From IMG/VR virus record IMGVR_UViG_3300026549_000034, positions 96,001 to 160,000 of that record: 64,000 nt of DNA; one strand, 5' to 3'. The notes under the pieces are model-generated. The model saw only the letters and a list, made by a program, of their open reading frames with translations, searched no databases and was not told where the DNA came from. Of this stretch, positions 5,595-50,136 are shown one piece after another; positions within the stretch are counted from its first letter, which is position 1; every line of letters begins with the position of its first letter. Origin of the DNA: a virus. Taxonomy: Duplodnaviria > Caudoviricetes. The position numbers and the translations under genes are program-made.

Positions 5595-6047
5595 TTAATA
5601 TTTAATATTGTATAAGTTTAAATAGTTATCATATGCAACATAATATTGCTTATAATTTGCATATTTCTTATGACACCAAACAATATAAGAATGCAAAAAA
5701 TTAAGTGTAATACCATTTTCTGATAAACGTTTATCAATTTCATTACCAAATACTTTAATTGCATCATCCCATTCCATAAACACCGCAGCTAACCATCTTC
5801 TAACTAGTTTATTGTTGTCTTTTATGCTATTTACAAGTCTAGTTGGATTTGAACCTTTTTTTCTATATTGTTCCATTTTTTGTTTATCTTGATATTCTAT
5901 TGTAGGTGTTTTTGAAAATTTCAATTCATAAAATTTGGATTTTATGGTATTTTCATAATCTTCATAAGGAATAAGCTTTGGACTTTTCGACAAATCAATA
6001 TCTTTAATATTTAATTTTTCTATGAGGATGTCCTTTAAATTTTTCAT
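5595..6047 (-). CDS. Hypothetical protein with EKLNIK leader (putative internal head protein)
   Basis: Start re-called to ATG 6047 (MKNLKDILIEKLNIKDI), matching the shared leader family; the longer ORF overlaps the divergent gene and its promoter. Confidence 0.7.
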   Translation of the reverse strand: MKNLKDILIEKLNIKDIDLSKSPKLIPYEDYENTIKSKFYELKFSKTPTIEYQDKQKMEQYRKKGSNPTRLVNSIKDNNKLVRRWLAAVFMEWDDAIKVFGNEIDKRLSENGITLNFLHSYIVWCHKKYANYKQYYVAYDNYLNLYNIKY

Positions 6048-6054
6048 ATATAAT

Positions 6055-6083
6055 TTGAATTTTATTTCTACAGTTACTATATT
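6055..6083 (+). promoter_or_regulatory. Class A promoter candidate TTGAAT-N17-TATATT
   Basis: Exact 17-bp spacing; motif recurs upstream of several + strand genes. Confidence 0.65.
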
Positions 6084-6109
6084 ACTATATATTAAAAATA
6101 AAAAAATAT

Positions 6110-6373
6110 ATGAGTAAGAAAATTCTTTCACCGGAACAGGAAATGCTTAACAAGGTACAAGGCCTTTATGAAAAGCAAAGAAACAAAAAATTCAATTATA
6201 ATATTGAAGATTTTGAAATGAAAGACAACAAGTGGAAACATAAGACTTGGAACACTTGGTTGATTGGTGGTAATAGTTACAAAGAAACTATAAAAGTAAT
6301 TCAAAGGTATATTAATGAATGCAATAAGCCGTTAGAAGAAAGAAATTTGTCATTTATTCATTTAGCACATTAA
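6110..6373 (+). CDS. Hypothetical protein
   Basis: 87-aa ORF downstream of a class A promoter. Confidence 0.7.
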   Translation: MSKKILSPEQEMLNKVQGLYEKQRNKKFNYNIEDFEMKDNKWKHKTWNTWLIGGNSYKETIKVIQRYINECNKPLEERNLSFIHLAH

Positions 6374-6380
6374 AAAATCT

Positions 6381-6779
6381 ATGATTACTGTTAAAGAACT
6401 TAGAAACATGCTTTTGAGTTGCCCTGAGGATTGGAATATAGAATTTCGTAAGTGGGAACATGGAAATCCAGAAGATTTTATGAAAAGGAATCATTATCCT
6501 ATGCCTAATTTGGTTAGCATCCAAATAAAAGAGGTTGTAACCAAGGCAAATAATGATCACGAATGGATTAATCATACATTTATTGTTGAAGATGATTTTG
6601 AAGATAACTTCATAATGAATAGGGATGAAATGATTGAATTTTTCTGTGGAGGTTTGGCTGATTATGAATTGATTTCATTTGAATTGAAGACAGAAGAAGG
6701 TAATATTCCCTTAACTATTGAAGTTGGTGACAAGGGTTATAGTGATAAAATAATGATGATTAACTTAGAAGAAAATTAA
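6381..6779 (+). CDS. Hypothetical protein
   Basis: 132-aa acidic ORF. Confidence 0.7.
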   Translation: MITVKELRNMLLSCPEDWNIEFRKWEHGNPEDFMKRNHYPMPNLVSIQIKEVVTKANNDHEWINHTFIVEDDFEDNFIMNRDEMIEFFCGGLADYELISFELKTEEGNIPLTIEVGDKGYSDKIMMINLEEN

Positions 6780-6890
6780 AAATTATGTGAATTTTATTTA
6801 AATATTTCAACATTAATATTCAATTTTAATATCAACAAACTTATAAAAACAAATATATTTTTTAATTACAAACTTTAAATTTTTTAAATT

Positions 6891-7961
6891 ATGAAGAAAA
6901 TTTTTGTTATGATGATGGCTCTTGTAATGAGCCTTGGTATGAACGCACAGATCGCAACAGAGAATGCAAAGGTGCTTGATAATACTTTTGTTACTGTTAA
7001 TGGCGGTGTTGCAACTCCTCTTGATTTTAATTCAGTATTTCCATTGAATGCATCTGCAGGTCTTGCTGTTGGTAAGATGTTTACTCCTGTATGGGGTGCA
7101 GAAGTTGAAGGAACTGCTTGGTTTGGCAGCCATTTCTTTGGTGATGCAAATTCTCGTTTTGATTGGTATGGAACTGGTCATAATGTAGTTCGTGGTACTT
7201 ATGTAGGAGTAAATGGTCTTGTTAATTTGACTAATTTGTTTGCTGGATATAAGGGTACTCCACGTACATTTGAAGTAAGTACAGTTCTTGGTACAGGATG
7301 GGCTCATACATTTGCAGCAAATGCAGATGATGCTACAAGTAATGATCTTGCAGTAAAGACAGGTCTTGATTTTGCATTTAATCTTGGTAAGACAAAGGCT
7401 CATACAGTCAGTGTACGTCCTGCAGTACTTTGGAACGTTACAGCTAAGGAACTTCCTCGTACAATGGGTGCACAATTTGATAAGCGTGGTGCTCAGCTTT
7501 ATCTTGGGGTAGCATATACATATCATTTCAAGACAAGTAATAAGACACATCACTTTAAGACATATGATGTAGGTGCTATGATGGATGAAATCAATATGCT
7601 TAAGGAGGATCTTGCTAAGAAGCCTAAGCAGGTAGTTGTAGAAAAGGTAGTTGAAAAGGTTGTAGAAAAGGAAGTTGCAACAGATACTAATGTTACAGTA
7701 TATTTTACTAAGGGTTCTGCAAAACTTTCAGATAATGCAAAGGCTGCTCTTGATAAGCTTGGACAAAATGCAGTTGTAGATGTAAAGGGCTATGCAGATG
7801 AAGTAGGTCCTGAAAAGTTTAATCAGACTCTTTCAGAGAAGCGTGCAAAGACAGTAGCAGATTATCTTGAAAGCCGTGGTCTTAAGGTTAATACAACAAC
7901 TGGCTATGGTGAAACAGGAGATGTAGTAGCAAGAGTAGTTGTAGTAAGCTCTGCAAAGTAA
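6891..7961 (+). CDS. ompA: OmpA family outer membrane protein (Bacteroidales-type)
   Basis: Signal peptide MKKIFVMMMALVMSLGMNA-Q, beta-barrel region ending LGVAYTYHF, VVEKVVEK linker, OmpA C-terminal domain GYADEVG...NQTLSEKRAKTVADYL. Confidence 0.88.
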   Translation: MKKIFVMMMALVMSLGMNAQIATENAKVLDNTFVTVNGGVATPLDFNSVFPLNASAGLAVGKMFTPVWGAEVEGTAWFGSHFFGDANSRFDWYGTGHNVVRGTYVGVNGLVNLTNLFAGYKGTPRTFEVSTVLGTGWAHTFAANADDATSNDLAVKTGLDFAFNLGKTKAHTVSVRPAVLWNVTAKELPRTMGAQFDKRGAQLYLGVAYTYHFKTSNKTHHFKTYDVGAMMDEINMLKEDLAKKPKQVVVEKVVEKVVEKEVATDTNVTVYFTKGSAKLSDNAKAALDKLGQNAVVDVKGYADEVGPEKFNQTLSEKRAKTVADYLESRGLKVNTTTGYGETGDVVARVVVVSSAK

Positions 7962-7993
7962 AAAGTAGAATATATATTTTACTATAAAAAATG

Positions 7994-8019
7994 AAAGAAC
8001 TGACACATGTCAGTTCTTT
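7994..8019 (+). terminator. Intrinsic terminator hairpin
   Basis: AAAGAACTGACA-CA-TGTCAGTTCTTT followed by T. Confidence 0.75.
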
Positions 8020-8057
8020 TTGTTGTTATATATGCATGAAAAATAAAATATAAGATA

Positions 8058-8069
8058 TATTTTTAATTA
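8058..8069 (+). promoter_or_regulatory. Class B (late-type) promoter candidate TATTTTTAATTA
   Basis: Same 12-mer lies about 20-45 nt upstream of many structural and leader-bearing genes. Confidence 0.55.
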
Positions 8070-8107
8070 TATATAAATGATTTATCATATAAGATTTAAT
8101 ATATAAC

Positions 8108-14047: not shown

Positions 14048-14097
14048 TGACTAAATTCATTATTAATTATAATTATTATATATAAAGGATTTTTTAT

Positions 14098-14283: not shown

Positions 14284-14286
14284 GTT

Positions 14287-22463: not shown

Positions 22464-23867
22464 TTATTCTTCATCTTTCTTATCTTCGTCATCTTTGCAA
22501 TCTTCATCATCTTTACAGTCTTTACAATCCTTTTTGCATTCACATTCTTTCTTTCCACATTTAGGACAAACTTCTTCCTTCTTTTCTTCAGCCTTTTCTA
22601 ATAAAGACAAATCTTTTGCAATCTTATTTAATAATGTAATCTTCAATGGATCATTCTTGTATTTTTCAGCTAACATAGCAATCTTTTTCTTACGAATGTC
22701 ATATTGTGCTTCTTTATTTGCTTCAAGTTGTTCACGAATTTCATTTTCTTCTGAATTAGCTTTCTTGCAATCTTCACTTATTCTTTCTTCATACATTGCT
22801 TTCAAATCAATACCTGTTAACTTAATTACATTATTTAAAGCTTCTACAACATAATCATAATTATAACTTCCTGTGCCTTGTTTAATATTTCTAAATACTG
22901 TCAAGTTAACGTTATCTTTAGCTTCAACTAATGCGCAAATTGTTCCATTACTTGTATTAATAACTTTTACATTATCCAAAGCAACTATATTGTCCATAGC
23001 TTCAAAAACCTTAGCAACATTACTTGTCAAATTCATAAATGTAAGCTTTTCATTCATAGTCATAATCTTTGAAATTGTATTAGCATATTCTTGGAATTTA
23101 ACTACATCATCAAAATGTTCTTTAATTTCTTGTCCAAAACCTGTTTTAACAAAATCAAGACCGTTTTCATTTAATGTTAAACGTACTTTGTCTCCATGAG
23201 CACCTTTCATTTCAACAAAGATATTATCACCATCCTTAGAGAAATGTTCAAGTAATGCATTTATTTCTAAGAACTTCTTGTCATCACAAATACTTTCAGA
23301 AACTTTTCCTTCAGCAATCTTATATGTTTTACCAAGAACATAGATAAATTGTTCTTTATTTTCATTCATATAGATATAACTTACAGGATTAGTTACGCTA
23401 TAATTAGGAGCTTGTGTTTCTGTAATGTTTTGCTTATAAACTTCTTTGCATACTTGACGGAATTCAGGAATGTATTGAATATTCTTTAATACACCTGCTT
23501 TGATATAGCTAACTACATCATTTTCATTCATTTCAAGTAACTTAGTAACTTGTTCAACACCAAGTTTGTTAATGTAATTATATACACTGTTATTGTTACT
23601 TATTGACTCACATGCAGAAGCAAGTTTCCATGAGATATTGTTTTCATTAATATATTCTTTTACAGATTCCACTATATTGTTCAAACCTGTATCAAAGGTA
23701 CATTTTGAAGCCTCAAGTAAGAAGCCGTTAACTATACCACATGTAGGAGCATTGCTATACACATAAGCTCTATAACCTTTTAATATTTCCTTACCTGCTT
23801 CAGTTACTGCTTCAGTACCATTGATCTTTTCAGCAAAGTTAAGGTTCTTCAATAATTTAATGCTCAT
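22464..23867 (-). CDS. Hypothetical head/scaffold-like protein with Cys/acidic C-terminal tail
   Basis: 467 aa; many (I/L/M)NE sites; tail CPKCGKKECECKKDCKDCKDDEDCKDDEDKKDEE. Confidence 0.6.
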   Translation of the reverse strand: MSIKLLKNLNFAEKINGTEAVTEAGKEILKGYRAYVYSNAPTCGIVNGFLLEASKCTFDTGLNNIVESVKEYINENNISWKLASACESISNNNSVYNYINKLGVEQVTKLLEMNENDVVSYIKAGVLKNIQYIPEFRQVCKEVYKQNITETQAPNYSVTNPVSYIYMNENKEQFIYVLGKTYKIAEGKVSESICDDKKFLEINALLEHFSKDGDNIFVEMKGAHGDKVRLTLNENGLDFVKTGFGQEIKEHFDDVVKFQEYANTISKIMTMNEKLTFMNLTSNVAKVFEAMDNIVALDNVKVINTSNGTICALVEAKDNVNLTVFRNIKQGTGSYNYDYVVEALNNVIKLTGIDLKAMYEERISEDCKKANSEENEIREQLEANKEAQYDIRKKKIAMLAEKYKNDPLKITLLNKIAKDLSLLEKAEEKKEEVCPKCGKKECECKKDCKDCKDDEDCKDDEDKKDEE

Positions 23868-23954: not shown

Positions 23955-24245
23955 TTATAATCTCCATCCCATTGATGTTCCTACAGCCCCCATAACAAGT
24001 TTTGATGTCAATAATGAGCCAAAACTTCCTTTTACATCTACACCTAATGCTTTACAAACGGCTTGCATAAGTTTGGGACCTACAGTTGTTCCTAATAACC
24101 CACCTGTAACTGCACCAAGTATACCTTCATCAATAGGTACATTATTTTCTTTTGCTTCTTGAAGTTTTTGAATCATTTCATCATATAATAGTGATTCATT
24201 TACTTGTTGTTCTTCATTATTTATTATTTCTTCTATTGTTTTCAT
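23955..24245 (-). CDS. Small protein: acidic N-half plus glycine-zipper hydrophobic C-half
   Basis: MKTIEEIINNEE...IDE-GILGAVTGGLLGTTVG...GSFGSLL...MGAVGTSMG. Confidence 0.7.
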   Translation of the reverse strand: MKTIEEIINNEEQQVNESLLYDEMIQKLQEAKENNVPIDEGILGAVTGGLLGTTVGPKLMQAVCKALGVDVKGSFGSLLTSKLVMGAVGTSMGWRL

Positions 24246-24652
24246 TTTTGAATCATAAAATATAATGTATTTGGCTTTTGATTTTTAGTATCTACAAATA
24301 TTTCAATATAATCATTTTCATATATTGCTGCAACTGCTGTACTTCCTGGAGTATCTTTTGTTTTATATGTTGCCGATATATAATTTTCTTCGGTTAAATT
24401 TAATTTATTTCTATGTTCTCTAATAAGTTCCTTAATTTCATCATTATTACCATCAGTATTATCAATTAATACATATACTTTTTTATTTGGTTTGAAATAT
24501 TGTGAAATAAAAGATCTTATATCGGAATTAAATGTATTAGGACTCCAGTTTTTAAATTCAGTATAATCGTTTAATATCTTAATATCTTTATAATTAAAAA
24601 TATTATCTATATTAATATTTTTTATGTTTAATTTTTCTAAAATAGATATCAT
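24242..24652 (-). CDS. EKLNIK-leader protein, paralog of 24880-25296
   Basis: MISILEKLNIKNI; shares DYTEFK.WSPNTFN.DIR.FI..YFKPNKKVYVLI with its paralog. Confidence 0.75.
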   Translation of the reverse strand: MISILEKLNIKNINIDNIFNYKDIKILNDYTEFKNWSPNTFNSDIRSFISQYFKPNKKVYVLIDNTDGNNDEIKELIREHRNKLNLTEENYISATYKTKDTPGSTAVAAIYENDYIEIFVDTKNQKPNTLYFMIQK

Positions 24653-24813: not shown

Positions 24814-24890
24814 TTAGTATTTGTCTTTACGTCTATCTGCTTGAAGTTTCTTTTGTGTTTATTATTTCTTCTATTGTTTTCATTTTTGAA
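24814..24890 (-). pseudogene. Recombination scar: duplicated 5' end of the 96-aa gene joined to a diverged 3' end of the AAA ATPase gene
   Basis: 24858-24890 is identical to 24220-24252 (33 bp); 24814-24849 encodes KLQADRRKDKY* versus RLQADRRKNKY* at the end of 27245-28783. Confidence 0.8.
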
Positions 24891-25296
24891 ATAAATAATA
24901 TATTGTGTTTTTTAGTTTCCCATAATCTATAGGAGATATAAATATTTCTGTATTACCATCATCATATACCAATGAAACTGCCGTACTTGCAGGTGATTTT
25001 ATACTGTTACGTTTAGCATTTAATACATCATACTCAGAATATCCCAATATACGTCTATGATTACCAATTAAATGATTATTTTTGTCATCATTATCATTAA
25101 TTATTAATACATATACTTTCTTATTAGGCTTAAAATATTTTTTAATAAAAGCTCTAATATCTATATTAAATGTATTAGGACTCCAATCTTTAAATTCGGT
25201 ATAGTCTTTTAATGTTTTTGTATTATCATTATTAAAAATTGGATCTTTATCTATTTGAATATTCTGAATATTTAATTTTTCAAAAATTGATTTCAT
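24880..25296 (-). CDS. EKLNIK-leader protein, paralog of 24242-24652
   Basis: Start re-called to MKSIFEKLNIQNI at 25296. Confidence 0.75.
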   Translation of the reverse strand: MKSIFEKLNIQNIQIDKDPIFNNDNTKTLKDYTEFKDWSPNTFNIDIRAFIKKYFKPNKKVYVLIINDNDDKNNHLIGNHRRILGYSEYDVLNAKRNSIKSPASTAVSLVYDDGNTEIFISPIDYGKLKNTIYYLFQK

Positions 25297-25325: not shown

Positions 25326-26129
25326 TTAATCACCATTATATCTTGGATTTCCATATTGATCCGTTTGACCATATCCCATTGTCCAAGAAAGTTTTTCATC
25401 ATCACTTAGGCTATTCCACCATTTTTTCCATTCTTCTTCTGCCTTTTTACGTTTTTCCTCTTCTTCTTGATGTTTTTTAATGGCTTCTTTTTCTTTTCTA
25501 TCAGCTTCATCAGCCCATTCTTTAAGGTGTTTTACATCTTTAAGATCTTTAATTTTTTCTTCTCTTTCTTTATTAAAAATATTATTATTTACTTTTATTT
25601 CTAATACAGTATTATCATATTCCTTTTCTGAAGATTCATCCATGGTAACCGAAATCTTACCTTTCATGTATGGCTTTAACATAGTTAACCAATTATTCCA
25701 ATCTTCATTATACTTATAATAATTATATTCAACATATTTATCAGAATACCAAGCACCTGCATATGTATATTCTTGTATTTCTGGTATTACTGTCCAATTT
25801 TTAGTATTTTCTTTTGTTGGGAAATCTTTATATGTTATGCGATCTGCTGGTAATGGAAGTCGAATCATTTGTGCATATGACTTTAAAAATTTTATAACTT
25901 TTACTCCGTTTTCTTTTTGACTTTCTTCAGTTCTTTCTGCACCAAAATATATTTTCTTTATATTGGCTTTTGTTATTTTATAATTTTTGTTTTTTGCACC
26001 TTCATTATATATATCAAAAGTATATGGTAAATCTATTTGAAATTTACCTTCATTAACAGCATTACCAATAATATCCTTAGAATAAGATATTAGTTCATTT
26101 TCATTTATATAATCTTTTAAGTTCTTCAT
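25326..26129 (-). CDS. Hypothetical protein with leader and C-terminal coiled coil
   Basis: MKNLKDYINE leader; charged helix near the C-terminus. Confidence 0.7.
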   Translation of the reverse strand: MKNLKDYINENELISYSKDIIGNAVNEGKFQIDLPYTFDIYNEGAKNKNYKITKANIKKIYFGAERTEESQKENGVKVIKFLKSYAQMIRLPLPADRITYKDFPTKENTKNWTVIPEIQEYTYAGAWYSDKYVEYNYYKYNEDWNNWLTMLKPYMKGKISVTMDESSEKEYDNTVLEIKVNNNIFNKEREEKIKDLKDVKHLKEWADEADRKEKEAIKKHQEEEEKRKKAEEEWKKWWNSLSDDEKLSWTMGYGQTDQYGNPRYNGD

Positions 26130-26148: not shown

Positions 26149-26760
26149 TTATTCTTTATACCAGCTTGGAATATTTTTTAATGAAGTACAACCTTTAAAT
26201 GTATTAAACATATCAGTAACTTTAGATACATTCCAATTACTTAAATCTGCATTAAAATCATAACATTCATAAAACATATTATCAATTCTTTTTATATTAG
26301 ATACATCCCAATTGCTTAGATCAGAATTAAAATCATAACAAAATGCAAACATAGAACTTGTAATTGTAACACTTGATACATCCCAATTACTTAAATCAGA
26401 TTCAAATTTATTACAATCATAAAACATATGATGCATATCAGTAACTTTAGATACATCCCATTTACTTAGATCAGATGAAAAATTCTTACAATATAGAAAT
26501 ATACCATTCATATCAGTAACATTACTTACATTCCATCTTGATATGTCTATATTATGAGGATCTAACTTATTAAATAGTAATGACATATCGGTTATTTCAC
26601 TAACATCAATATCATTTAAATCTGCATCCTTATCCCTTTCTAATCTGGCTTCAACTATGTTTCTTAGATCATTTTTACTTTTAGGTTTACATGTATAATG
26701 ATCTATATTAATGTCTTTTATATTAAGCTTTTCTAATATGTAGTTATTTAGGTTCTTCAT
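26149..26760 (-). CDS. DUF285/BspA-like 25-aa repeat protein (5 repeats) with EKLNIK leader
   Basis: Repeats of LS.W(D/N)VS.V..M..MF..C..FN.D; leader MKNLNNYILEKLNIKDI. Confidence 0.88.
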   Translation of the reverse strand: MKNLNNYILEKLNIKDINIDHYTCKPKSKNDLRNIVEARLERDKDADLNDIDVSEITDMSLLFNKLDPHNIDISRWNVSNVTDMNGIFLYCKNFSSDLSKWDVSKVTDMHHMFYDCNKFESDLSNWDVSSVTITSSMFAFCYDFNSDLSNWDVSNIKRIDNMFYECYDFNADLSNWNVSKVTDMFNTFKGCTSLKNIPSWYKE

Positions 26761-26783: not shown

Positions 26784-27239
26784 TTATTTGTACCAGCTTG
26801 GTTTATTTTTTAAAGAAGTACATCTAAAAAACATATCTTTCATATTTATAACATTAGATACATCCCAATTATTTAAATCACAATTAAAATATTTACAAGA
26901 ATCAAACATATAGCTCATATAAGTGCATTTTGATACATTCCAATTACTTAAATCAGAATTAAAATTTTTACAATATACAAACATATTACTCATATTTGTA
27001 ACATTTGAAACGTCCCATTCAGATATATCAATATTATGTGGATCTAATCCGGCAAATAAACTGGCCATATTTGTTATTTGGCTAACATCAATATCATTTA
27101 AATCAGCATTTTTATCTTCTTTTAAACGTTTTTCCAATATCTGTCTAAGTTCTTCTTTTGTCTTAGGAAAATATTTATATTGATTTCTTATATCTTTTAC
27201 GTTGAGCTTCTCAAATATGTAGTTATTTAAGTTCTTCAT
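26784..27239 (-). CDS. DUF285/BspA-like repeat protein (3 repeats) with EKLNVK leader
   Basis: Same repeats and N-cap; MKNLNNYIFEKLNVKDI. Confidence 0.88.
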   Translation of the reverse strand: MKNLNNYIFEKLNVKDIRNQYKYFPKTKEELRQILEKRLKEDKNADLNDIDVSQITNMASLFAGLDPHNIDISEWDVSNVTNMSNMFVYCKNFNSDLSNWNVSKCTYMSYMFDSCKYFNCDLNNWDVSNVINMKDMFFRCTSLKNKPSWYK

Positions 27240-27244
27240 ATATC

Positions 27245-28783
27245 TTAATATTTGTTTTTTCTTCTGTCAGCCTGTAATCTCATTTGTTCTTTTATCATTT
27301 CCTTTGTTAGCATATCATCTTCATCTTTCATTGATTCAAATAATGTTGCACAAATTAAGAAAGTACGAATAGAAACTTCCATTTCATTGTCTTCTTCATT
27401 AAGTTGTATAAGATATCCTAATGCTTTACGTTTTGATTCTTTTGAAAGTTTGTCAGAACTTAATGTAGGCATAAGATTTGTTATTATCTTAAGTACATCT
27501 TCAGTACTAAAATGTATGTCCTGTATATATGATCTACCACGTAATGCAGTATCTAATGATCCAGCATTATAGTTTGTTATGATTATTACTGATCCATTAT
27601 AATAGAAACGTTTAGGAAGTTCATTGCCATTTTCATCAGTAATTTTTCCAGATACGCCATAAGTAACTAAACGTCCCTTCTCATCTTCCGTACTATCAAG
27701 AGCTCCTTTTAATATATTTATACAATCTTCTGGGGCTTTAGGACCAACCAATGAATCTGCATCATCAATAACAATTATGTCTCCTTTGTCTTTGTAATTA
27801 TATAATGAAAGATATAATACTCTTGGTGTACATTTACCTTTTATTGTATAAAGATTCTTTTCTTCTTCATACCCATTTTCCTTTAATAGTTTCTTTACTC
27901 TAAATGTCTTTCCTACACCAGGAGCACCGCAAAGTATAACAGATGGATTGATTCCCTTAATAACCATCTTCACATATCCTTCCATTTTCTTAAACACCAT
28001 TTCAGGATCATTTATTGTTTCTTTGAATTTGGTTTCTGATTGTTGTTCTTCTGGTGATTTTTTTATTGTTATATTATTTCCTTTATCAACTTTAAGTTTT
28101 ATTTCATCAACAGTTTTTGCACCGCCCTGTATAGCCTTTATAATTTCTCTAAATTCATCTGCTATATCTCTATACTGTAATGCAGCTTGAGGTGAATCAT
28201 TTTTTCTTTTTTCTGCATCCAACCAAGCTCTACGTTTTGCTGTTACATATTCATCAACTTCTGGTGAATATTTTTCATTTATAACTGTATATTTTAATGC
28301 ACCAATATAGAATGATTCATTTGCATTCTTATTGAATATAGATCTTCCTAATTTCTTGGCCTCAGCATCTGTCAAATCATATTGTTTATTGTTTACTACT
28401 GTCCAAATAATAGGAAGAAAATATACTATTGATGAATCTAATGTTTGTATAGTTAAGTTAGATTTTGCTTTACCAGTAAATGCTAAATCCATATCTTTGA
28501 AAAAATCAATAGAATATGGATTCATTGATTCTGAAGACTTTATCCAGTTTATTTGAAACATTTGAACATTTTCTTTTGAATTAATGACAATATACTGTTT
28601 AGATATGAATTCATTATCTTTTGAAAATGTTTCAACATATCCTACTAATGGAACAATATTCTTAATATGTTTCTTTAATAAATCAGATATTTTATCAACA
28701 TAACTATCAAAGTTCTTATTACTAATTGATTCATTAAGAACATTTTGTCTTCTTTTAATAAAATCTAAATAACTATTTTTCAT
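27245..28783 (-). CDS. AAA+ ATPase with large N-terminal domain
   Basis: Walker A GAPGVGKT, Walker B IIVIDDAD, IIITN sensor I, ALRGR arginine finger. Confidence 0.85.
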   Translation of the reverse strand: MKNSYLDFIKRRQNVLNESISNKNFDSYVDKISDLLKKHIKNIVPLVGYVETFSKDNEFISKQYIVINSKENVQMFQINWIKSSESMNPYSIDFFKDMDLAFTGKAKSNLTIQTLDSSIVYFLPIIWTVVNNKQYDLTDAEAKKLGRSIFNKNANESFYIGALKYTVINEKYSPEVDEYVTAKRRAWLDAEKRKNDSPQAALQYRDIADEFREIIKAIQGGAKTVDEIKLKVDKGNNITIKKSPEEQQSETKFKETINDPEMVFKKMEGYVKMVIKGINPSVILCGAPGVGKTFRVKKLLKENGYEEEKNLYTIKGKCTPRVLYLSLYNYKDKGDIIVIDDADSLVGPKAPEDCINILKGALDSTEDEKGRLVTYGVSGKITDENGNELPKRFYYNGSVIIITNYNAGSLDTALRGRSYIQDIHFSTEDVLKIITNLMPTLSSDKLSKESKRKALGYLIQLNEEDNEMEVSIRTFLICATLFESMKDEDDMLTKEMIKEQMRLQADRRKNKY

Positions 28784-28802: not shown

Positions 28803-28814
28803 TAATTAAAAATA
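28803..28814 (-). promoter_or_regulatory. Class B promoter candidate TATTTTTAATTA
   Basis: Upstream of the AAA/leader-protein operon. Confidence 0.55.
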
Positions 28815-28835: not shown

Positions 28836-30557
28836 TTAGATAAAGTATATATTTATTGGTTGTACTATTATAGAATCTTGTTTTGAATTTTCTTTGTCTG
28901 TATAATACTTAAAACCACCACATAATCTTGGAAGTTGATATATACTATCTAAAGATATATTGCCAAATACATCAAGACCAGGTGTATTGTTTTTATTATA
29001 TTTATTGATTACATAACTTGTCTTGTCATCAAAATCAATGTCATCATAATATTTTTTATATTCACCTTCTATATATGCATTCTCATTATAGTCAGATATA
29101 ATATTAAGATCAATTGATTCAATGATTTTATCAATATCAGCTTCTATTATTTTGTTCAATAGTTCAGATTTAGATATGAACTTGACGTCATATGAAAGAT
29201 TAATAAAATAATTTCTTAATGTATCATTTATTATTTGTGATGCAATTTGTTTATTATATTTACTATTAATCTTTACATAACAAATAATAGCGTATTTTAC
29301 AAAAATAGGTTTAATAAATTCAATTTGGAATCCTGCTAATGTCTTATTTGAATTACTTAATGTATCAATAATCATTTGTTGTTGATTTTGAGTAAGTAGC
29401 AAATCATCATTTGTTAGTTTGAAATATTTGTCACTATCATTTTTATATTGTTCAGTAATATTATTAAGACATATAATATAAATCTTATTATATTTTAGAG
29501 ATGCTATACAATTGTTATATCCTACAAATGAAAATCTCTTTAAGAACAATTTCATATTATCAACTGATGAATATATTAATGATCTTGAATTACTACCAAC
29601 CATTGTTCTTATGAAATCAATACTGTCAGAATTTCTACCGCCACTTATAGTATTATTTATTGTCAATGAAATAAAATCATTTGCATTAACGGTATTTCCT
29701 ACGGTATCTGTAAGTGTACCATAAAATTCAAATTCGGCATTTTCAATATCATATATATTTCCGTCAGTTCCTTGATGACGTAAATATTTGATTTCAATTA
29801 CTTGACCTTCATTAAGTTTTTTACCGTAAGTACCATTTCCAAATGTTATGTCAAATTCATTGTCAAATCCAATACTAAACATATATTCTTTACTGTCATT
29901 ACTCATATCATACAGACAAGAAACTTCAGAATATTCTTCACCGTCAACAGTTACTGTAATACATTCTCTATCAAATAATCCTATTGTAGTAATATGAATT
30001 GATTCTAATACATTACCTTTAGCAATATATCTTGCTGTTGTAAAAGTTCCCTGTTTTATCTTAAATTGATATTCTATTAATGGGTTTGTTACAGAAAAAA
30101 TATAATAATTTGTAGGTATCATTATAGAATATATAATACCTGTTGTTTTATTTATAACTTGTGTATTGTTTGGTATATATAGATTGTTTATACTTTCATT
30201 TACAGTTATTTTATTAGATGTTTTACTTGTACCGGAATTTATGTTATTGTTTACTTTTAGTTTTGCTACCAATACACCGCCTGCAGCATTTCCATAATTA
30301 GGTTCAAATCCAGATATCTTTGCTAACGAATATATTGATTTCTTTCTTGTTGCAGTATATATGTTTTGTTCCGTCAATGCATCTTCTATATAAAACATAA
30401 TATTTTGCATTACGCCTTTTATTCCATCAAATATTACACCGAATATTTGAGAACTAGAATATTGCATTCCTAAACTATTGAATACTTTTGACAAATATGT
30501 TCTTACAGTTGAATCAAAATTGTCAAATGTTGTTTCCATTACTTTGAATAGTTTCAT
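28836..30557 (-). CDS. Baseplate wedge subunit (T4 gp6-like)
   Basis: EQNIYTATRKKSIYSLAKISGF, FGNGTYGKKL, SGGRNSDSIDFIR motifs of the gp6/baseplate-J family. Confidence 0.8.
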   Translation of the reverse strand: MKLFKVMETTFDNFDSTVRTYLSKVFNSLGMQYSSSQIFGVIFDGIKGVMQNIMFYIEDALTEQNIYTATRKKSIYSLAKISGFEPNYGNAAGGVLVAKLKVNNNINSGTSKTSNKITVNESINNLYIPNNTQVINKTTGIIYSIMIPTNYYIFSVTNPLIEYQFKIKQGTFTTARYIAKGNVLESIHITTIGLFDRECITVTVDGEEYSEVSCLYDMSNDSKEYMFSIGFDNEFDITFGNGTYGKKLNEGQVIEIKYLRHQGTDGNIYDIENAEFEFYGTLTDTVGNTVNANDFISLTINNTISGGRNSDSIDFIRTMVGSNSRSLIYSSVDNMKLFLKRFSFVGYNNCIASLKYNKIYIICLNNITEQYKNDSDKYFKLTNDDLLLTQNQQQMIIDTLSNSNKTLAGFQIEFIKPIFVKYAIICYVKINSKYNKQIASQIINDTLRNYFINLSYDVKFISKSELLNKIIEADIDKIIESIDLNIISDYNENAYIEGEYKKYYDDIDFDDKTSYVINKYNKNNTPGLDVFGNISLDSIYQLPRLCGGFKYYTDKENSKQDSIIVQPINIYFI

Positions 30558-33246: not shown

Positions 33247-33378
33247 TTAATATAAATAACTTAATTTACAATTATAATTAAAAATATATTTTATACTATA
33301 TTTTCTTTGATTTAATTAATGGATAATTAAAATTTCTTATATTTTATACTATATTAAAAATACTAAAATTTATATAAT

Positions 33379-34229: not shown

Positions 34230-34433
34230 ATGAAAACATTAAAGGATAGAATATTTGAAGAACGACAAATAAAATATAATGTTGCATTTGTTGGATGTAC
34301 AGATAGTGAAGGTATTCCAGTATCTTGTACAATTTTGGTTGATGCAAATAATCAAAAGGAAATTGAAAAATATTTTGAAAATGAACAAGACAATACATTT
34401 GTTCATGTAGAGGGAGGAAATATTGAATATTAA
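34230..34433 (+). CDS. Small acidic protein with leader-like N-terminus
   Basis: MKTLKDRIFEE; class B motif at 34199-34210. Confidence 0.65.
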   Translation: MKTLKDRIFEERQIKYNVAFVGCTDSEGIPVSCTILVDANNQKEIEKYFENEQDNTFVHVEGGNIEY

Positions 34434-35900: not shown

Positions 35901-37610
35901 TTATTTAGTTTCATTTGCTTTCTTTTCAGCTTCTTCTTTAAATTTCCATGACAATTCATCATCTAATACATGCTTCTTTGCTGGATTAATAAGATATCCC
36001 ATTTTTGTCATGATGTCTCTATTAATAAGTATTTTTTGCTTTTTGTTTCTATTGTCAACTAAAGCAAATTCAGCATTTAATAATTTACGTGATCCTATTT
36101 GAATACATGGTATAAGAACTGTTTTTCTATTTTCAGTTACTTGACCGACAATTGCATTTGATTCACCATGTTTCTTGAAATAATATTTTTTGCCTTCAAT
36201 TACTGCTTCAATTAAAGTACCGTTTTCTTCTAATGAATCACATCCAATTGTACTTGCCTTAGCACCATTTCCTGTATCAAATTTTGCTTCAAGAGTAAAT
36301 TGCTGTTCATTTTCTGTTGTAAATGTAATGTCTTCAAGATAACCTATTGATTTTGGTTCTAATACTAATTCATTTATATCATTAATGTTGTCTAAAAGTA
36401 TCTTTACAAAGTTTTCTCCAATTACTTCAGATATACCGTCAGTACCTGGTGAACTATTATATTCTAATACAACATTATCACCAACTTCTGGATTACTTCC
36501 TGAAACTAACGGCATAATGTCTACAGCACACCATGGCATTCCAGATATTTTAGCAACCTTTAATGCAATTTCCTTTTGTTCTTCAGTCAGTTCAACCTTT
36601 TCTGCAGTTGCACCTAAAGATACATTACTTCTAAAATCACCAGATATCTTTACACGTTTCATAGCCGCAAGTATCTTTTGTTGTGTTCTCATAGTCAATA
36701 CATGTACACGAATATCACCGCCATCAGCTTCTTCCTTCTTTTGTACTAACAATTCAAGATCTTCATCTACTGCAAACATTGCTTGAAGTATAGCTAAAAT
36801 ACCTTTACCATTTGTCATAAATACACCAGTACCGCCATGTCCATCAAGTATTTTTACAACATATTCAAACTTTTCATCTGCTTTTAAATCTTTACCAATT
36901 TCTTTATTTACTCTCTTAAGTTTCTTTGATAATGATTCTTCACCATTCTTAATATCATTTTTAGATACTAAAGTAAAACGTGGTTGTGGAATTTCATATC
37001 TTTCAAGTAATACTGCAGATGTATACTTATTAGATGCCTTCTTTGCCGATTGAATTGGATTTATTACAAAGAATCCCCATGCTTGAAGTTCTTTGATAAG
37101 TTCCATACATTCTTCGGATTCTTGAACTCCAAGACGAGTAATTACAATAGTATCAATATTTGATTGTTCATTGACTTTATATTTTGTCTTATCATCACTA
37201 AATGAAATTTCTTTATCAGTAGCTTTATATGAAATTTCATCAGCAACAAATGTAAATATTTCTATATCTGTATTCTTTACAGCATCATTAAGATTTTTTA
37301 GAGTCTTATTTGTTTTTTCTTCTCTATCATTTGTAAAGAAAAGAATGTTCTTAAAGAAATAATTAGACTGTTCTATTTTGTCCTGAATACTATCTTTAGA
37401 TTCAGAATCTTCCATTTTCTTATTAACTTCATCAGATATGTCATTATCATTTTTCTCATCAGGTTTATCATCCTTAATATCTAATAAATTGTCTAATTTA
37501 GTTTCTTCCTTAGTTTCTTCTTCCTTAATAATATTTTGTCTTTTCTGTTTAAGAGTTTCCATTACTTCTGCAATAGTTTCAGGATCTCTATAGTCATATT
37601 GCTTTTTCAT
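35901..37610 (-). CDS. RimK-like ATP-grasp peptide ligase fused to a C-terminal retropepsin-like (RimB-type) protease
   Basis: NKY, VKILDGHGGTGV, DIRVHV, FRSNVSLG, AVDI, LEYNSSPG; C-terminal AKFDTGNGA...ILINR aspartyl-protease pattern. Confidence 0.85.
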   Translation of the reverse strand: MKKQYDYRDPETIAEVMETLKQKRQNIIKEEETKEETKLDNLLDIKDDKPDEKNDNDISDEVNKKMEDSESKDSIQDKIEQSNYFFKNILFFTNDREEKTNKTLKNLNDAVKNTDIEIFTFVADEISYKATDKEISFSDDKTKYKVNEQSNIDTIVITRLGVQESEECMELIKELQAWGFFVINPIQSAKKASNKYTSAVLLERYEIPQPRFTLVSKNDIKNGEESLSKKLKRVNKEIGKDLKADEKFEYVVKILDGHGGTGVFMTNGKGILAILQAMFAVDEDLELLVQKKEEADGGDIRVHVLTMRTQQKILAAMKRVKISGDFRSNVSLGATAEKVELTEEQKEIALKVAKISGMPWCAVDIMPLVSGSNPEVGDNVVLEYNSSPGTDGISEVIGENFVKILLDNINDINELVLEPKSIGYLEDITFTTENEQQFTLEAKFDTGNGAKASTIGCDSLEENGTLIEAVIEGKKYYFKKHGESNAIVGQVTENRKTVLIPCIQIGSRKLLNAEFALVDNRNKKQKILINRDIMTKMGYLINPAKKHVLDDELSWKFKEEAEKKANETK

Positions 37611-37636: not shown

Positions 37637-38200
37637 TTAATATAAATTATCCATTATTGTTTTGGCATTGACATGGCCATCAGCCTTTTCATTATCTAAT
37701 TTTTTGGAACTATATGGATCTATATGATCATTACCTTGTAGTATCTTATATAAAAAATATGCTGAATCATATATCTTATCGCCTGGATGTTTACATTTAT
37801 TATCAAAGTTTGTTACCCATTCATCTTCATCTTGAATATTTATGTCTTTGTCATCCATTTTCAATATATTTTTCAATGCCCACTTAACTACATCAACTTC
37901 GTCATTTGATGAATATAATATAATTTTATCAGGTGTAAAGTCTTCATATTCATCATTAAACATGGATATCATTTTAACCATATCAAAGAATGATGCAACA
38001 TGAGGCAATTCATGATAATTATCTTTGTATACAAAATATTTTGCATCTGGTACTTCAAGCTCATTCCATGATCCATCCCAATTATCTTCTTCATTTACAG
38101 GGAATTTTGGTATTTCTACAGATATCTTATTTCTATTTTGTTTTACGCTTATATTTTTTACGTTTAATTTTTCGACAATATAGTTTGATAATTTTTTCAT
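37637..38200 (-). CDS. EKLNVK-leader hypothetical protein
   Basis: MKKLSNYIVEKLNVKNI; class B motif at 38229-38240. Confidence 0.72.
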   Translation of the reverse strand: MKKLSNYIVEKLNVKNISVKQNRNKISVEIPKFPVNEEDNWDGSWNELEVPDAKYFVYKDNYHELPHVASFFDMVKMISMFNDEYEDFTPDKIILYSSNDEVDVVKWALKNILKMDDKDINIQDEDEWVTNFDNKCKHPGDKIYDSAYFLYKILQGNDHIDPYSSKKLDNEKADGHVNAKTIMDNLY

Positions 38201-38244
38201 AAATAGTACTATATTATTTTAATACTTATAATTAAAAATAATAA

Positions 38245-40536: not shown

Positions 40537-41119
40537 AATTCGAGACATAAAATATAAGTTATTAAAAGAACTAAAATGGGATCATATTAAAGAAACTGGA
40601 TATGATTGTAATAGTGGTACAAAATATGTAGAGGTTAAAAATGCATTATTTGAAGTAGATAAAGACAGGATATTCAATACAATTCCTCAACTTTCATATA
40701 TGAGTCCACAATGGTATATAGATAATTATGATCCTATATTAAATAAGAATGATCAATTAAATAAATGTATAAGTAAATTAGTAGAAAATACAAATTCAAG
40801 ACAAGCCGTTATTATAATGGGCGATACTAATGAATTTGATAATATAGATAATACTTTTATATGTACAATGTATATGCATATATTTCTAAATAAGATAAAA
40901 TATGATGTATATGAATTAGAATATATTGTACATATGAGATCTAATGATTGTATAGAATTTATTACTGATTTACAATGGCATAAGAAATTATATAATGATA
41001 TCTTAAATCAATTAAGAGAAAAAACTAAATTAATGATTATGCCAAAAAATATTATATGGAATGCAGACACTATACATTTATATGAACAATTTTTTGAACA
41101 AGCATTAAAAGAATCTTAA
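40529..41119 (+). CDS. Shortened, divergent gp42/thymidylate-synthase-fold paralog
   Basis: SRQAV, FICT, HMRSNDCIEFITD, WNADTIHLYE; lacks the internal segment leading to INSNYG. Confidence 0.8.
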   Translation: MDKIRDIKYKLLKELKWDHIKETGYDCNSGTKYVEVKNALFEVDKDRIFNTIPQLSYMSPQWYIDNYDPILNKNDQLNKCISKLVENTNSRQAVIIMGDTNEFDNIDNTFICTMYMHIFLNKIKYDVYELEYIVHMRSNDCIEFITDLQWHKKLYNDILNQLREKTKLMIMPKNIIWNADTIHLYEQFFEQALKES

Positions 41120-41125
41120 TTTTAT

Positions 41126-41815
41126 ATGAAAAAACTTATTTCAGCTTCTATTATGTGTGCTAAGAACTTATTGAACTTAGAACACGAAATTAAAGAACTA
41201 GAGAAAAACAATATTGATATGTTTCATCTAGATGCTATGGATGGACATTTTGTAAATAATATTACTTTTGGTCCAGACATATTGAACGCTATTCATAAAT
41301 GTGTTACAAAACCTTGTGATTATCATTTAATGATGGATGATCCTTTGACATTTATAGAACGTCTCGAGCTTTCGGCAGATGATATTGTTACAATACATGC
41401 AGAAATTGATCCAGAAAAATTTGATGCAACTATAAAATATTTGAATTCTTTAAAGAAAAGAGGAATTAAGATTGGGGTTGCGATTAATCCAAAAACATCA
41501 ATAGAAGGATTGTATGACTATTTGGAATATATAGACATGATATTAGTTATGCTTATTAATCCTGGATTTGCTGGTCAACCTATTATTGGTGGTATTATGC
41601 AAAAGCCGATATATGTTCGTCAATATTTAGATTCTATAGGGTATGAAAATATAATGATATCTGTTGATGGCGGTGTATCTAATGAACGTGCAGAAATATT
41701 AGCAAAAGGCGGTGTAAATGTATTTGTTGGCGGTACTTCTGGATTATTCAAAAGAAATCAAAATATTAAGACAAGTATTGAAAATTTACGAAAATCATTA
41801 AATACTTCTGATTGA
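41126..41815 (+). CDS. Ribulose-phosphate 3-epimerase family protein, allulose-6-phosphate 3-epimerase (AlsE)-like
   Basis: HLDAMDGHFV, DYHLM, VDGG; AlsE-type SIMC, PGFAGQP and GTSGLF. Confidence 0.88.
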   Translation: MKKLISASIMCAKNLLNLEHEIKELEKNNIDMFHLDAMDGHFVNNITFGPDILNAIHKCVTKPCDYHLMMDDPLTFIERLELSADDIVTIHAEIDPEKFDATIKYLNSLKKRGIKIGVAINPKTSIEGLYDYLEYIDMILVMLINPGFAGQPIIGGIMQKPIYVRQYLDSIGYENIMISVDGGVSNERAEILAKGGVNVFVGGTSGLFKRNQNIKTSIENLRKSLNTSD

Positions 41816-41866
41816 AATTTCTATTTTTAATTAAAGAATTAATTGTTTTTAATATAATAAATTAAT

Positions 41867-45804: not shown

Positions 45805-45806
45805 GT

Positions 45807-47577: not shown

Positions 47578-47599
47578 AAACAATTATTCTTTTTATATG

Positions 47600-47626
47600 A
47601 AATGAGGATCTTAAAGATCCTCATTT
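47600..47626 (+). terminator. Intrinsic terminator closing the modification operon
   Basis: AAATGAGGATCTT-A-AAGATCCTCATTT followed by a T-rich run. Confidence 0.8.
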
Positions 47627-47662
47627 TTATTTTTAAATATAAGAATATGAAACAAAATATTA

Positions 47663-48730
47663 ATGAAAATTTTTCAAATATTATTAAATAAAACAAAAAA
47701 TAGTTCATATAGATATGCTGAAGAATTATATCTATCATTATCATCTATAGAAGATATTGATATTGACCAAAGTATAATAGTTGATAAAAGTGAATTTAAT
47801 CCAGATTTGATAGATATAATTAATTCTTATGATTACGTTTTTATTCATTCAATATCAAAAGATAAAGATTTATATAACATATTAATAAATTTTATTAAAC
47901 CTAAAAAGATATTATTTATTACTCATACTATATTAAAGCAATGGCATAATGATATTAATTTATCATATATTATTCCATTATTGCGAAATGTAAGTAAAAT
48001 AGTAATTAATCCACTTGCATTAGATATAATAAATGAAATTAAGGAAAAAATATCTGATGATCAGTTTAACAAAAAATATGTAGAACTTAAATATGTTTAT
48101 AATTTTTATTTGTTTAATACAATAAATAAAGATAATATCATATCAATGATATCAAATAAGGGAGTACGAACTAATTATGATTTATTCATTAATTTATTTA
48201 AAAACAAAGAAATATTAAATAGAGATTTTATTTGGAAATTATACGGTGTAACAAAGAACATTCAAACTTATTATATTAATGATTTATATATAAACAATAA
48301 AACACAAAAACCTTCATTAATAACTAATTTTGATACAACAGTTATTTCAAAAAATATGATAAATGTATATGGAGAAATAGACAGAAATACATATAAAGAA
48401 GTTATAGAAAAATCATTATTTACATGCAATTTTGATAATGAATCTTATATAAGTTATAATATAATAGATATAATAGGCAATGGATCTATTCCAATAATGT
48501 CAAAAACTGTAGCGCAAAACATAAGAATAAATCAAAAACAAACATTATATGATCTTAAATGCGGTATATTTATTAATGATACATTTGATGAACAAGCTAT
48601 AATAACTATAAATAAATTAGTACAAAGTCCTAATACATACATAAATACATTAAATAAGCATGTAAATATTTTTAAACAAATTTTCAATAATTCAGAAACA
48701 ATCAATAAATTATTACAAAATATAATATGA
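47663..48730 (+). CDS. Degenerate DNA alpha-glucosyltransferase-like (GT-B) protein
   Basis: INSYDYVFIHS, IKPKKILFITH, YNIIDIIGNGSIPIMSK align by eye with T4 AGT; key motifs are altered. Confidence 0.55.
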   Translation: MKIFQILLNKTKNSSYRYAEELYLSLSSIEDIDIDQSIIVDKSEFNPDLIDIINSYDYVFIHSISKDKDLYNILINFIKPKKILFITHTILKQWHNDINLSYIIPLLRNVSKIVINPLALDIINEIKEKISDDQFNKKYVELKYVYNFYLFNTINKDNIISMISNKGVRTNYDLFINLFKNKEILNRDFIWKLYGVTKNIQTYYINDLYINNKTQKPSLITNFDTTVISKNMINVYGEIDRNTYKEVIEKSLFTCNFDNESYISYNIIDIIGNGSIPIMSKTVAQNIRINQKQTLYDLKCGIFINDTFDEQAIITINKLVQSPNTYINTLNKHVNIFKQIFNNSETINKLLQNII

Positions 48731-49431
48731 AAAACATAAATAATTACATATCAGAGAAGCTCAATATAAAAAATATTAAAGTACATCAATATAAGTATTT
48801 TCCAAAGACAAAAGAAGAACTTAGAAAAATCTTAGAAAAAAGATTAGATGAAGACAATAATGCGGATTTGAATGATATTGATGTTAGTGAAATAACTGAT
48901 ATGTCATTACTATTTAATAAGTTAGATCCACATAATATAAATATATCTGGCTGGGATGTAGGTAATGTTACTGCAATGGGTGCAATGTTTAATGGATGTG
49001 ATAATTTTAATTCTGACTTAAGTAAATGGGACGTTAGTAAGGTTACTAATATGGATTCAATGTTTGCTGATTGTGGAGAATTTAATTCTGATCTAAGTGA
49101 ATGGGATGTATCTAAAGTTACAAATATGCAAGCTATGTTTACTAGATGTCATAAACTTGATACCGACTTAAATAAATGGGATGTATCTAATGTTACTGGA
49201 ATGGATTCAATATTTTATGGTTGTAATAACTTTAATTCTGACTTAAGCAATTGGAATGTATCTAATGTTACTGATATGTATAAAATGTTTTATGATTGTA
49301 ACAGCTTTAATTCTGATCTAAGTAAATGGGATGTAAGTAATGTTACTGATATGCGTAATATGTTTTTTGGATGTGATTCGCTAAAAAATAAACCAAGCTG
49401 GTACAAGAATAAAATAAAAATTAAAAAATAA
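48727..49431 (+). CDS. DUF285/BspA-like repeat protein (6 repeats) with EKLNIK leader
   Basis: MKNINNYISEKLNIKNI; 25-aa W(D/N)VS repeats. Confidence 0.88.
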   Translation: MKNINNYISEKLNIKNIKVHQYKYFPKTKEELRKILEKRLDEDNNADLNDIDVSEITDMSLLFNKLDPHNINISGWDVGNVTAMGAMFNGCDNFNSDLSKWDVSKVTNMDSMFADCGEFNSDLSEWDVSKVTNMQAMFTRCHKLDTDLNKWDVSNVTGMDSIFYGCNNFNSDLSNWNVSNVTDMYKMFYDCNSFNSDLSKWDVSNVTDMRNMFFGCDSLKNKPSWYKNKIKIKK

Positions 49432-49452
49432 TATATAATATATATAAATGAT

Positions 49453-50136
49453 ATGAAAAACCTAAAAGACGTCATTATAGAGAAGCTCAATATAAAAAAT
49501 ATTAAAATACAATATACTTGTCATCCAAAAACAAAAGTAGAACTTCAATTAATATTGAGAGAAAGACTATCAAAAGATAATAATGCTAATTTGAATGATA
49601 TTGATGTTAGTGATATAACCGATATGTCTAATTTATTTGAAAAATTAAATCCTCATAATATAGATATATCTGAATGGAATGTATCAAATGTTATCAATAT
49701 GAGTTATATGTTTTATGATTGTCAAAATTTTAACTGTGACTTAAGTAAATGGGACGTAAGTAATGTTACAAATATGATAAATATGTTTTATGATTGCAAA
49801 GAATTTAATTCTGACTTAAGCAAATGGAATGTAAGTAATGTTAAAAAAATGAATGGTACATTTGCTGGCTGTATAAAATTTAATTCTGATCTAAGCAATT
49901 GGGATGTTAGTAATGTTAATAATATGGGTGGACTATTTGCTAGATGCCAAAATTTTAATGCAGATCTAAGTAATTGGAATGTATCTAATGTTCAAAACAT
50001 GGTAAATATGTTTTATGAATGTGAAAAATTTAAAGGCAAAGGATTAGAAAAATGGAAACCAACCAAATTATTAATATATAAGAATATATTTTATAAGACT
50101 CAATTAGAAAAAAATCCTCCAAAATGGTATAAATAA
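49453..50136 (+). CDS. DUF285/BspA-like repeat protein (5 repeats plus a degenerate one) with EKLNIK leader
   Basis: MKNLKDVIIEKLNIKNI; 25-aa repeats. Confidence 0.88.
   Translation: MKNLKDVIIEKLNIKNIKIQYTCHPKTKVELQLILRERLSKDNNANLNDIDVSDITDMSNLFEKLNPHNIDISEWNVSNVINMSYMFYDCQNFNCDLSKWDVSNVTNMINMFYDCKEFNSDLSKWNVSNVKKMNGTFAGCIKFNSDLSNWDVSNVNNMGGLFARCQNFNADLSNWNVSNVQNMVNMFYECEKFKGKGLEKWKPTKLLIYKNIFYKTQLEKNPPKWYK

Follow-up and report, generated by a model that had tools for sequence, protein, structure and literature searches.

The capsid targeting sequence (CTS) of bacteriophage T4 reportedly goes back to original work by Mullaney and Black in 1996. It sits on the internal proteins IPI, IPII and IPIII (and on Alt) and is processed by the prohead protease gp21 (PMC9026906, PMC3012670). 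A review of Black's work attributes targeting by the IPIII CTS mainly to residues 4 and 7, and processing to residues 8 and 10 (PMC9026906). In the giant phages phiKZ (gp175), 201phi2-1 and SPN3US, dozens of head proteins are cut after Glu (S/A/G-x-E) by a gp21-related protease, and giant-phage heads can carry ~50 protein species (PMC9026906, PMC7411985). Here, we describe an N-terminal leader with the ten-residue consensus MK-x-L-x-x-Y-I-x-E, found on many proteins of an uncultured T4-like jumbo phage. The window, that is, the whole stretch of DNA analysed, is 64,000 nt long and corresponds to bases 96,001-160,000 of one IMG/VR contig of 193,181 bp with 26.7% G+C. On balance, the leader is probably a T4-type CTS that is cut after Glu10.

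The leader and the genes that carry it

A first-pass annotation of the window had singled out eight genes starting with M-x(4-8)-EKLN[IV][KQ][ND]I, and all eight translations agree with this pattern: MKNLKDILIEKLNIKDI at 6047 (-), MISILEKLNIKNI at 24652 (-), MKSIFEKLNIQNI at 25296 (-), MKNLNNYILEKLNIKDI at 26760 (-), MKNLNNYIFEKLNVKDI at 27239 (-), MKKLSNYIVEKLNVKNI at 38200 (-), MKNINNYISEKLNIKNI at 48727 (+) and MKNLKDVIIEKLNIKNI at 49453 (+). Contig-wide, however, this long leader (M-x8-EKLN[IV]...) is present on 24 genes rather than eight, and 23 further genes carry only a short form, MK-x-[LI]-x-x-[YF]-[IL]-x-E, after whose tenth residue the sequences diverge at once. The tagged genes thus total 47 of 269 open reading frames (ORFs; 17%, ~1 in 6). 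Among the looser leaders that had also been proposed, those at 26129, 34230, 53819 and 62433 are true MKxLxxxIxE leaders; the fit is loose at 2431 and 24245. The suggested scan of the genome and its relatives, which yielded the 47 genes, found 37 more in a complete related genome (G005), including orthologs of a tagged nucleoside diphosphate kinase (NDK) and a tagged HAD hydrolase. The frequency of the leader is far beyond chance: the strict pattern occurs at 38 of the 269 gene starts vs 3 of 1,170 internal Met positions, and a six-frame search for the EKLN motif returned 23 sites, 21 of them 5-10 residues past a start Met. The tagged genes considered in the window are the following.

5595-6047, minus strand: long leader MKNLKDILIE + KLNIKDI on an all-alpha body (translation; AlphaFold2 (AF2) pLDDT 65-74 for residues 1-30 and 94-98 for residues 51-150)
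24242-24652, minus strand: shortened leader MISILE + KLNIKNI; paralog of 24880-25296, in the run downstream of the baseplate genes
24880-25296, minus strand: shortened leader MKSIFE + KLNIQNI; paralog of 24242-24652, with an alternative upstream Met at 25326
25326-26129, minus strand: short leader MKNLKDYINE on a 267-aa body with no assigned family (translation)
26149-26760, minus strand: long leader on DUF285 (BspA-like LRR; PF03382 E=1.6e-51)
26784-27239, minus strand: long leader on DUF285 (PF03382 E=1.2e-33)
34230-34433, plus strand: looser leader MKTLKDRIFE on a 67-aa protein, with a promoter-like motif 31 nt upstream
37637-38200, minus strand: long leader; the body is a singleton, and the gene has a promoter-like motif of its own
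48727-49431, plus strand: long leader on DUF285 (PF03382 E=1.1e-71; AF2 pLDDT 60-66 for residues 1-20)
49453-50136, plus strand: long leader on DUF285 (PF03382 E=1.7e-60)
52533-53819, minus strand: short leader MKSLNTFVNE on an AAA-type ATPase (phrog_1297 ATPase, E=1.3e-28)
62433-63260, plus strand: short leader MKSLSQIIKE on a 275-aa body with no assigned family (translation)

The bodies behind the eight leaders had been assigned to several unrelated families, and they do fall into four, namely four DUF285 proteins, the paralog pair 24242/24880 and two singletons. The DUF285 assignments (26149, 26784, 48727 and 49453) score 116-239 bits against a gathering cut-off of 25 (E 1e-33 to 1e-71). 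For the singleton at 37637-38200 only three homologs were found, of which one that is 58% identical retains the long leader. The body of 5595-6047 was weakly matched by Pfam to SRA, a spurious assignment given that the AF2 model is an all-alpha bundle; a Foldseek search with this model found no fold match in the PDB. Contig-wide, the recognizable tagged folds comprise at least 13 DUF285 proteins, an NDK, a HAD hydrolase, an AAA ATPase and a weakly supported RNA-ligase-like protein, and PHROGs gave nothing useful for the tagged bodies outside DUF285. Many of the other tagged bodies are of unknown kind. With regard to the proposed effector set, several tagged proteins are ordinary-looking enzymes (NDK, HAD) and not obvious effectors.

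In line with a modular tag, the leader is a flexible add-on ahead of unrelated folds. The recognizable domains begin only at residue 19 (NDK) and residue 22 (HAD) of their tagged proteins, and Campylobacter DUF285 proteins begin directly at PKTKEEL, the cap that here comes after the leader. AF2 models of the DUF285 protein at 48727 and of the unrelated 5595-6047 protein both place a short helix (residues 4-11) in a low-confidence tail (pLDDT 60-74), ahead of a body predicted at 94-98.

Match to the capsid targeting sequence of T4

Glu stands exactly at position 10 in 42 of the 47 leaders, with a shortened form, in which it is at position 6, in the window genes 24242 and 24880. Information content is high at positions 1, 2, 4, 7, 8 and 10 and low at 3, 5, 6 and 9, amounting to 2.8, 2.5, 2.7 and 3.8 bits at positions 4, 7, 8 and 10 vs 0.6-1.5 at 3, 5, 6 and 9. 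The comparison with the T4 CTS drawn in the first-pass annotation is strengthened by these peaks at 4, 7, 8 and 10 and by a position-specific scoring matrix (PSSM) that was built only from 42 leaders of this phage and yet retrieves T4 IPII and IPIII. Scored against all 1,580 ATG-started T4 ORFs of at least 40 codons, it ranked gp61.1 (MKTFKEFIKE), IPIII and IPII (MKTYQEFIAE) as the top three starts, ~4 standard deviations above the mean.

Head genes of the relatives and a copy of the capsid N-terminal arm

The contig, 68% complete according to CheckV and with no terminal repeats, carries replication and recombination genes of T4 type, including topoisomerase II subunits, UvsX, gp46/47 and a dCMP hydroxymethylase. 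Five related contigs were retrieved through its baseplate gene.

28836-30557, minus strand: baseplate wedge (gp6-like) gene (phrog_219, E=5e-19), upstream of tagged genes and syntenic in the five related contigs

The complete ones are G003 (223 kb, with terminal repeats) and G005 (376 kb); by the same gene, the nearest cultured relatives, Sphingomonas phage PAU, Tenacibaculum phages PTm1 and pT24 and the Lak megaphages, are only ~25% identical. G003 and G005 each encode a Peptidase_S77 (gp21-type) protein and a gp23-like capsid protein. Aligned with T4 gp21, both proteases share the GELxHP (GELEHP) and SSRG motifs and have an N-terminal I-Y-E where T4 has LIE-9. In G003, an array of tagged DUF285 genes directly adjoins the protease gene, and another tagged gene lies between the capsid and sheath genes.

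A tagged 65-aa protein encoded outside the window (contig 41,028-41,225, minus strand) consists of the leader, a copy of the capsid N-terminal arm (N-arm) and a basic tail. The N-arm stretch reads FATPMNTxGMGNPxAP...GSGDIP and shares 38% identity with the N-terminal arm (residues 63-120) of the capsid protein in the relatives (E=2e-9 against the G005 capsid protein); orthologs of the 65-aa protein are present in the relatives L068 and L072. T4 gp61.1 is built in the same way, with a CTS-like leader, a copy of the N-arm of its own capsid protein and a basic tail. Residues 2-38 of this 54-aa protein align with residues 57-93 of gp23 (46% identity, E=6e-9), and its Glu10 falls on gp23 Glu65, the known gp21 cleavage site. 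This alignment makes T4's own CTS-like leader homologous to the cleavage region of its capsid protein. The likeness between gp61.1 and the 65-aa protein is one of design only, each copying the capsid protein of its own phage.

Two neighbourhoods may be recorded alongside these genes. G003 has ~51 DUF285-like genes, many of them arrayed beside the prohead protease gene (G003:203,119-223,118), and several share an upstream CCGAAATTCAA element. A RimK-like ATP-grasp ligase (35901-37610, minus strand; PF08443 E=1.5e-24), conserved in the relatives, adjoins the tagged gene 37637-38200, and in L068 and L072 the ligase gene directly adjoins that of the capsid N-arm mimic.

The linker that follows Glu10

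The KLNIK extension of the long leader is optional. The 23 short-form genes do without it, and so does every tagged gene of G005, a genome that lacks DUF285 genes; G003 has it on DUF285 genes only, as ERLKITSKSK. In metagenomic phage DUF285 proteins, MKxLNxYIxE is a very frequent start and leads into a basic linker of variable sequence (EKLKISS, ERLKINKDTK, EKLQIGSKTK). The same two-part leader is found on arrays of unrelated small genes in other IMG/VR contigs and on 58 of the 95 homologs of the 5595-6047 body in the representative library, all 58 with Glu at position 10. These linkers indicate that the eight genes carry a local dialect of a widespread two-part leader, whose basic linker has the general form EKLxINKxxK. 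The dialect itself appears to be lineage-specific, since exact EKLNIK[ND]I gave 67 matches in IMG/VR, none in an N-terminal leader context, although very near genomes may not be covered there. In this phage only, the linker has moved onto at least ten bodies other than DUF285. Motif searches of the literature found no description of an EKLKINK-type leader.

Traces of module exchange are visible in individual genes. A 303-aa protein (contig 163,479-164,390, minus strand) has an N-terminal long leader and a second, internal ...SLNEKLNINDIKI (remnant ...KNSLNEKLNINDIKI) before its DUF285 domain, and looks like an in-frame fusion of two tagged genes in which the L-x-E site at the joint has been kept. 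A DUF285 gene at contig 60,448-61,290 (minus strand) has a tandem duplication of the leader, with INEKLNV occurring twice. G003 also has leaderless paralogs whose start, M-A-LKITS, coincides exactly with the predicted mature N-terminus and is closely preceded by stop codons.

Two side observations concern other forms of the leader. The 29.5-kb contig IMGVR_UViG_3300031993_000442 is syntenic with positions 60-83 kb of the contig described here and there, too, tagged small genes form an array next to two divergent genes for ~280-aa and ~1,200-aa proteins; nearly every gene of that array has the long form MKxLxxYIxEKLKINKDSK, while the array here mostly has the short form. Homologs P0159, P0166, P0175, P0179 and P0187 of 5595-6047, from other lineages, start with a different N-terminal module of ~26 residues (…LYEKIMRxVSKEVKxALNE), which likewise ends in hydrophobic-x-Glu and may be another leader dialect; no IMG/VR relatives and no pattern matches were found for this leader.

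Promoter-like motif and gene order

A promoter-like 10-mer family, TTATTTTTA[AT][AT] (forms TATTTTTAAT, TTATTTTTAA and TTATTTTTAT), occurs 62 times. In 31 cases a same-strand start follows 15-80 nt downstream, against an expectation of 2.8. Most of the eight genes had been placed behind a 'class B motif', probably this 10-mer, and all eight do lie at or downstream of it. More generally, 33 of the 47 tagged genes are at or behind a 10-mer within a co-directional run, vs 98 of the 222 others. The sites that bear on the window genes are the following.

6091-6100, minus strand: 10-mer, 53 nt upstream of gene 5595-6047
28805-28814, minus strand: 10-mer (TATTTTTAAT), heading the run that starts with 27245-28783 and continues with five tagged genes, 27239 to 24242
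38231-38240, minus strand: 10-mer, 40 nt upstream of gene 37637-38200
47627-47636, plus strand: 10-mer, heading the run 47663-48730, 48727-49431 and 49453-50136
33277-33286 and 53861-53870: further 10-mer sites (family matches)

On this contig, the 10-mer is also found ahead of the baseplate run, of an endolysin-like gene and of several very large genes. In G005, the protease and sheath genes have the TTATTTTTAT form upstream, and the capsid and portal genes have close variants of it.

The five tagged genes between 24242 and 27239 come after the baseplate genes, separated by a few bases each, and the slot that holds them differs in content in every one of the five relatives, while its flanking genes are conserved. 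It resembles in this respect the hyperplastic internal-protein loci of T-even phages. Downstream of the slot, a 467-aa (22464-23867, minus strand) and a 96-aa protein (23955-24245, minus strand), neither with a Pfam or PHROG match, are syntenic in all five relatives and are probably structural.

Proposed function and alternative explanations

The motif with its statistics, its conservation as a peptide and its likeness to the T4 CTS, along with the protease and capsid genes seen in the relatives, leads us to infer a course of docking, cutting, packaging and injection. The hydrophobic residues 4 and 7 would dock the protein on the scaffolding core during prohead assembly. Next, the prohead protease, of gp21 type (S77), would cleave behind Glu10, for which it would use the Ile or Leu at position 8. 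The body would stay inside the head after cutting, and infection would release at least some of the bodies together with the DNA. The tag would thereby serve ~47 genes of 36 body families, DUF285 repeat binders and enzymes among them, with turnover in hyperplastic slots. KLN[IV]K[ND]I would be an optional, basic and flexible linker that originally belonged to phage DUF285 genes and was spread by exchange of 5' modules; AF2 confidence for the linker is low. Once cleaved, it would form a Lys-rich N-terminus, which may act as the second signal suggested in the first-pass annotation; that it aids association with DNA is a reasonable guess but no more than that. The further step, that most of the tagged proteins are injected effectors, is clearly less likely than the CTS function itself.

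The main rival, which we consider rather unlikely, holds that the leader is a docking or processing tag for another phage assembly, a non-prohead machine such as a chaperone, an AAA ATPase hub, a cytoplasmic assembly or timed degradation, and that its resemblance to the T4 CTS is that of a generic amphipathic helix ending in Glu. Such a tag would suit the enzymes of cytoplasmic type that carry it (NDK, HAD hydrolase, RNA-ligase-like protein and AAA ATPase), the lack of basic bias, the very large number of tagged genes and the conservation of a widespread 20-residue long form past the supposed cut site, but not the agreement, position by position, with the four functionally mapped residues of the CTS, nor the fact that the PSSM retrieves T4 IPII and IPIII. 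The design of gp61.1, in which Glu10 lies on the gp23 cut site, and the tagged copy of the capsid N-arm likewise count against it, and no candidate for an alternative receptor has been identified.

It is less probable still that the leader is a 5' cassette spread by recombination and kept mainly for good translation starts in a very AT-rich genome, with little function as a peptide. The passage of the long leader from DUF285 genes to other bodies and the fossils of fusion and duplication fit this explanation, as does the frequent occurrence of Lys at position 2 in untagged genes. The DNA upstream of tagged start codons is, however, unshared, and many tagged genes begin a few bases past the preceding stop. 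At the conserved leader positions, codons vary about as they do genome-wide (Leu as TTA, CTT or CTA, Tyr as TAT or TAC, Glu as GAA or GAG), while residues 4, 7, 8 and 10 are kept. This synonymous variation, together with the unconserved upstream DNA, points to selection on the peptide, and the codon data in particular disfavour a cassette. Moreover, 83% of the genes, large structural ones included, are untagged, and a relative with only 51% identity in the baseplate wedge protein still has the tag on its orthologs.

Common descent of whole genes, the eight proteins being diverged members of one family, is very improbable: four of the eight are indeed DUF285 paralogs and two more a paralog pair, but the leader-stripped bodies of the 47 tagged genes form 36 BLAST-unrelated families, among them NDK, HAD, LRR, AAA and an all-alpha bundle, and the tag lies beyond the domain edges; the explanation was rejected on these grounds. 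Least probable of all is an export signal or a recognition peptide for a radical S-adenosylmethionine (radical-SAM) maturase, both rejected: the leaders are amphipathic and charged, with neither a hydrophobic core nor a Cys lipobox, they do not resemble the Ser-rich FVSNSSS tag (MKxRxGFVSNSSS type with a neighbouring rSAM/SPASM enzyme), and a search of the contig for radical-SAM proteins (PF04055) found no match, while all control genomes gave matches. The absence of a signal peptide from the eight proteins had been stated beforehand; the leaders have no hydrophobic core of at least 10 residues after a basic N-terminus, and true lipoprotein-type signal peptides do exist in other ORFs, e.g. the window ORF at 6891.

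A T4-type CTS is supported by the positional match, the PSSM result, selection at the peptide level, the add-on nature of the leader, the protease and capsid genes of the relatives and the N-arm mimic. The context of the 10-mer, the ALNE-ending leader on homologs of 5595-6047 and the M-A-LKITS starts in G003 add to this support.

A number of observations weigh against it. The strict leader pattern at the DNA level has zero matches in PAU, PTm1, CPt10 and Lak-B1, and a tblastn search of cultured phages with a 22-aa consensus leader found none. To our knowledge, 17% of genes tagged is about ten times any documented CTS set. The tagged NDK, HAD and RNA-ligase-like enzymes do not look like obvious cargo of a head, and the mature bodies have a median isoelectric point of 5.77 vs 5.76 for the other proteins (Mann-Whitney p=0.87). 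The strong conservation of the long leader past the proposed cut site has no explanation under a CTS. No homolog of gp21, gp23, portal, terminase or sheath was found on the 68%-complete contig, which would place the whole head module in the missing third. In MAFFT alignments of the relatives' capsid proteins with T4 gp23, the cut site is not placed unambiguously, the guess being I-H-E or V-Y-E at residue 41/42, and T4 gp61.1 is, as far as we know, not a documented virion protein. Finally, the 10-mer does not establish late timing, as it is also found ahead of the recombination genes for gp47, UvsX and RNase H. The lack of the tag in cultured phages, the 17% scale, the enzymes and the non-basic bodies are what hold the CTS function at the modest degree of preference given here.

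Comparison with known systems

If the leader does load proteins into the head, this lineage would have about ten times more kinds of virion cargo than T4, including repeat-protein binders and metabolic enzymes, which would change the view of how much a phage brings into the cell ahead of any gene expression. It would also give a simple rule (Glu10, Ile8, Tyr7 and Leu4) for predicting cargo in metagenomes, and the design of gp61.1 offers a testable hypothesis for an uncharacterized but conserved T4 gene. A broader proposal, which we hold only tentatively and as doubtful, is that the two-part leader represents an undescribed addressing system widespread in uncultured phages, by which a sizeable fraction of the proteome would be loaded into the head and delivered with the DNA, the linker acting as a signal for DNA tethering or ejection. 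Its cargo would run to dozens of species, including LRR binders, NDK, a phosphatase, an RNA-ligase-like enzyme and the capsid N-arm mimic.

The leader shares with the T4 CTS its form as a ten-residue N-terminal tag with MK, a hydrophobic residue at 4, an aromatic one at 7, Ile or Leu at 8 and Glu at 10. It also shares its placement on unrelated, fast-turning bodies in a T4-related lineage, the complete relatives of which encode an S77 protease. It differs from the T4 CTS in scale, with ~47 tagged genes (17% of ORFs) against T4's handful, in being known from sequence alone, and in the conserved basic linker that half of the leaders add after Glu. Unlike T4 internal proteins, the tagged bodies are not basic, and they include enzymes and DUF285 repeat proteins; given the lack of basic bias, they would be at most CTS-type cargo and not homologs of the internal proteins. 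Giant phages such as phiKZ, 201phi2-1 and SPN3US have long, dissimilar propeptides and another cleavage motif, in contrast to the one common ten-residue leader found here. Among DUF285/BspA-like proteins with 26-residue repeats (PF03382), bacterial members start with a signal peptide or at PKTKEEL, whereas phage members start with a leader and linker. The CTS mechanism proposed here is known from T4, and what is new lies in the scale, the kinds of cargo, the two-part leader with its wide distribution and the capsid N-arm mimic shared with gp61.1.

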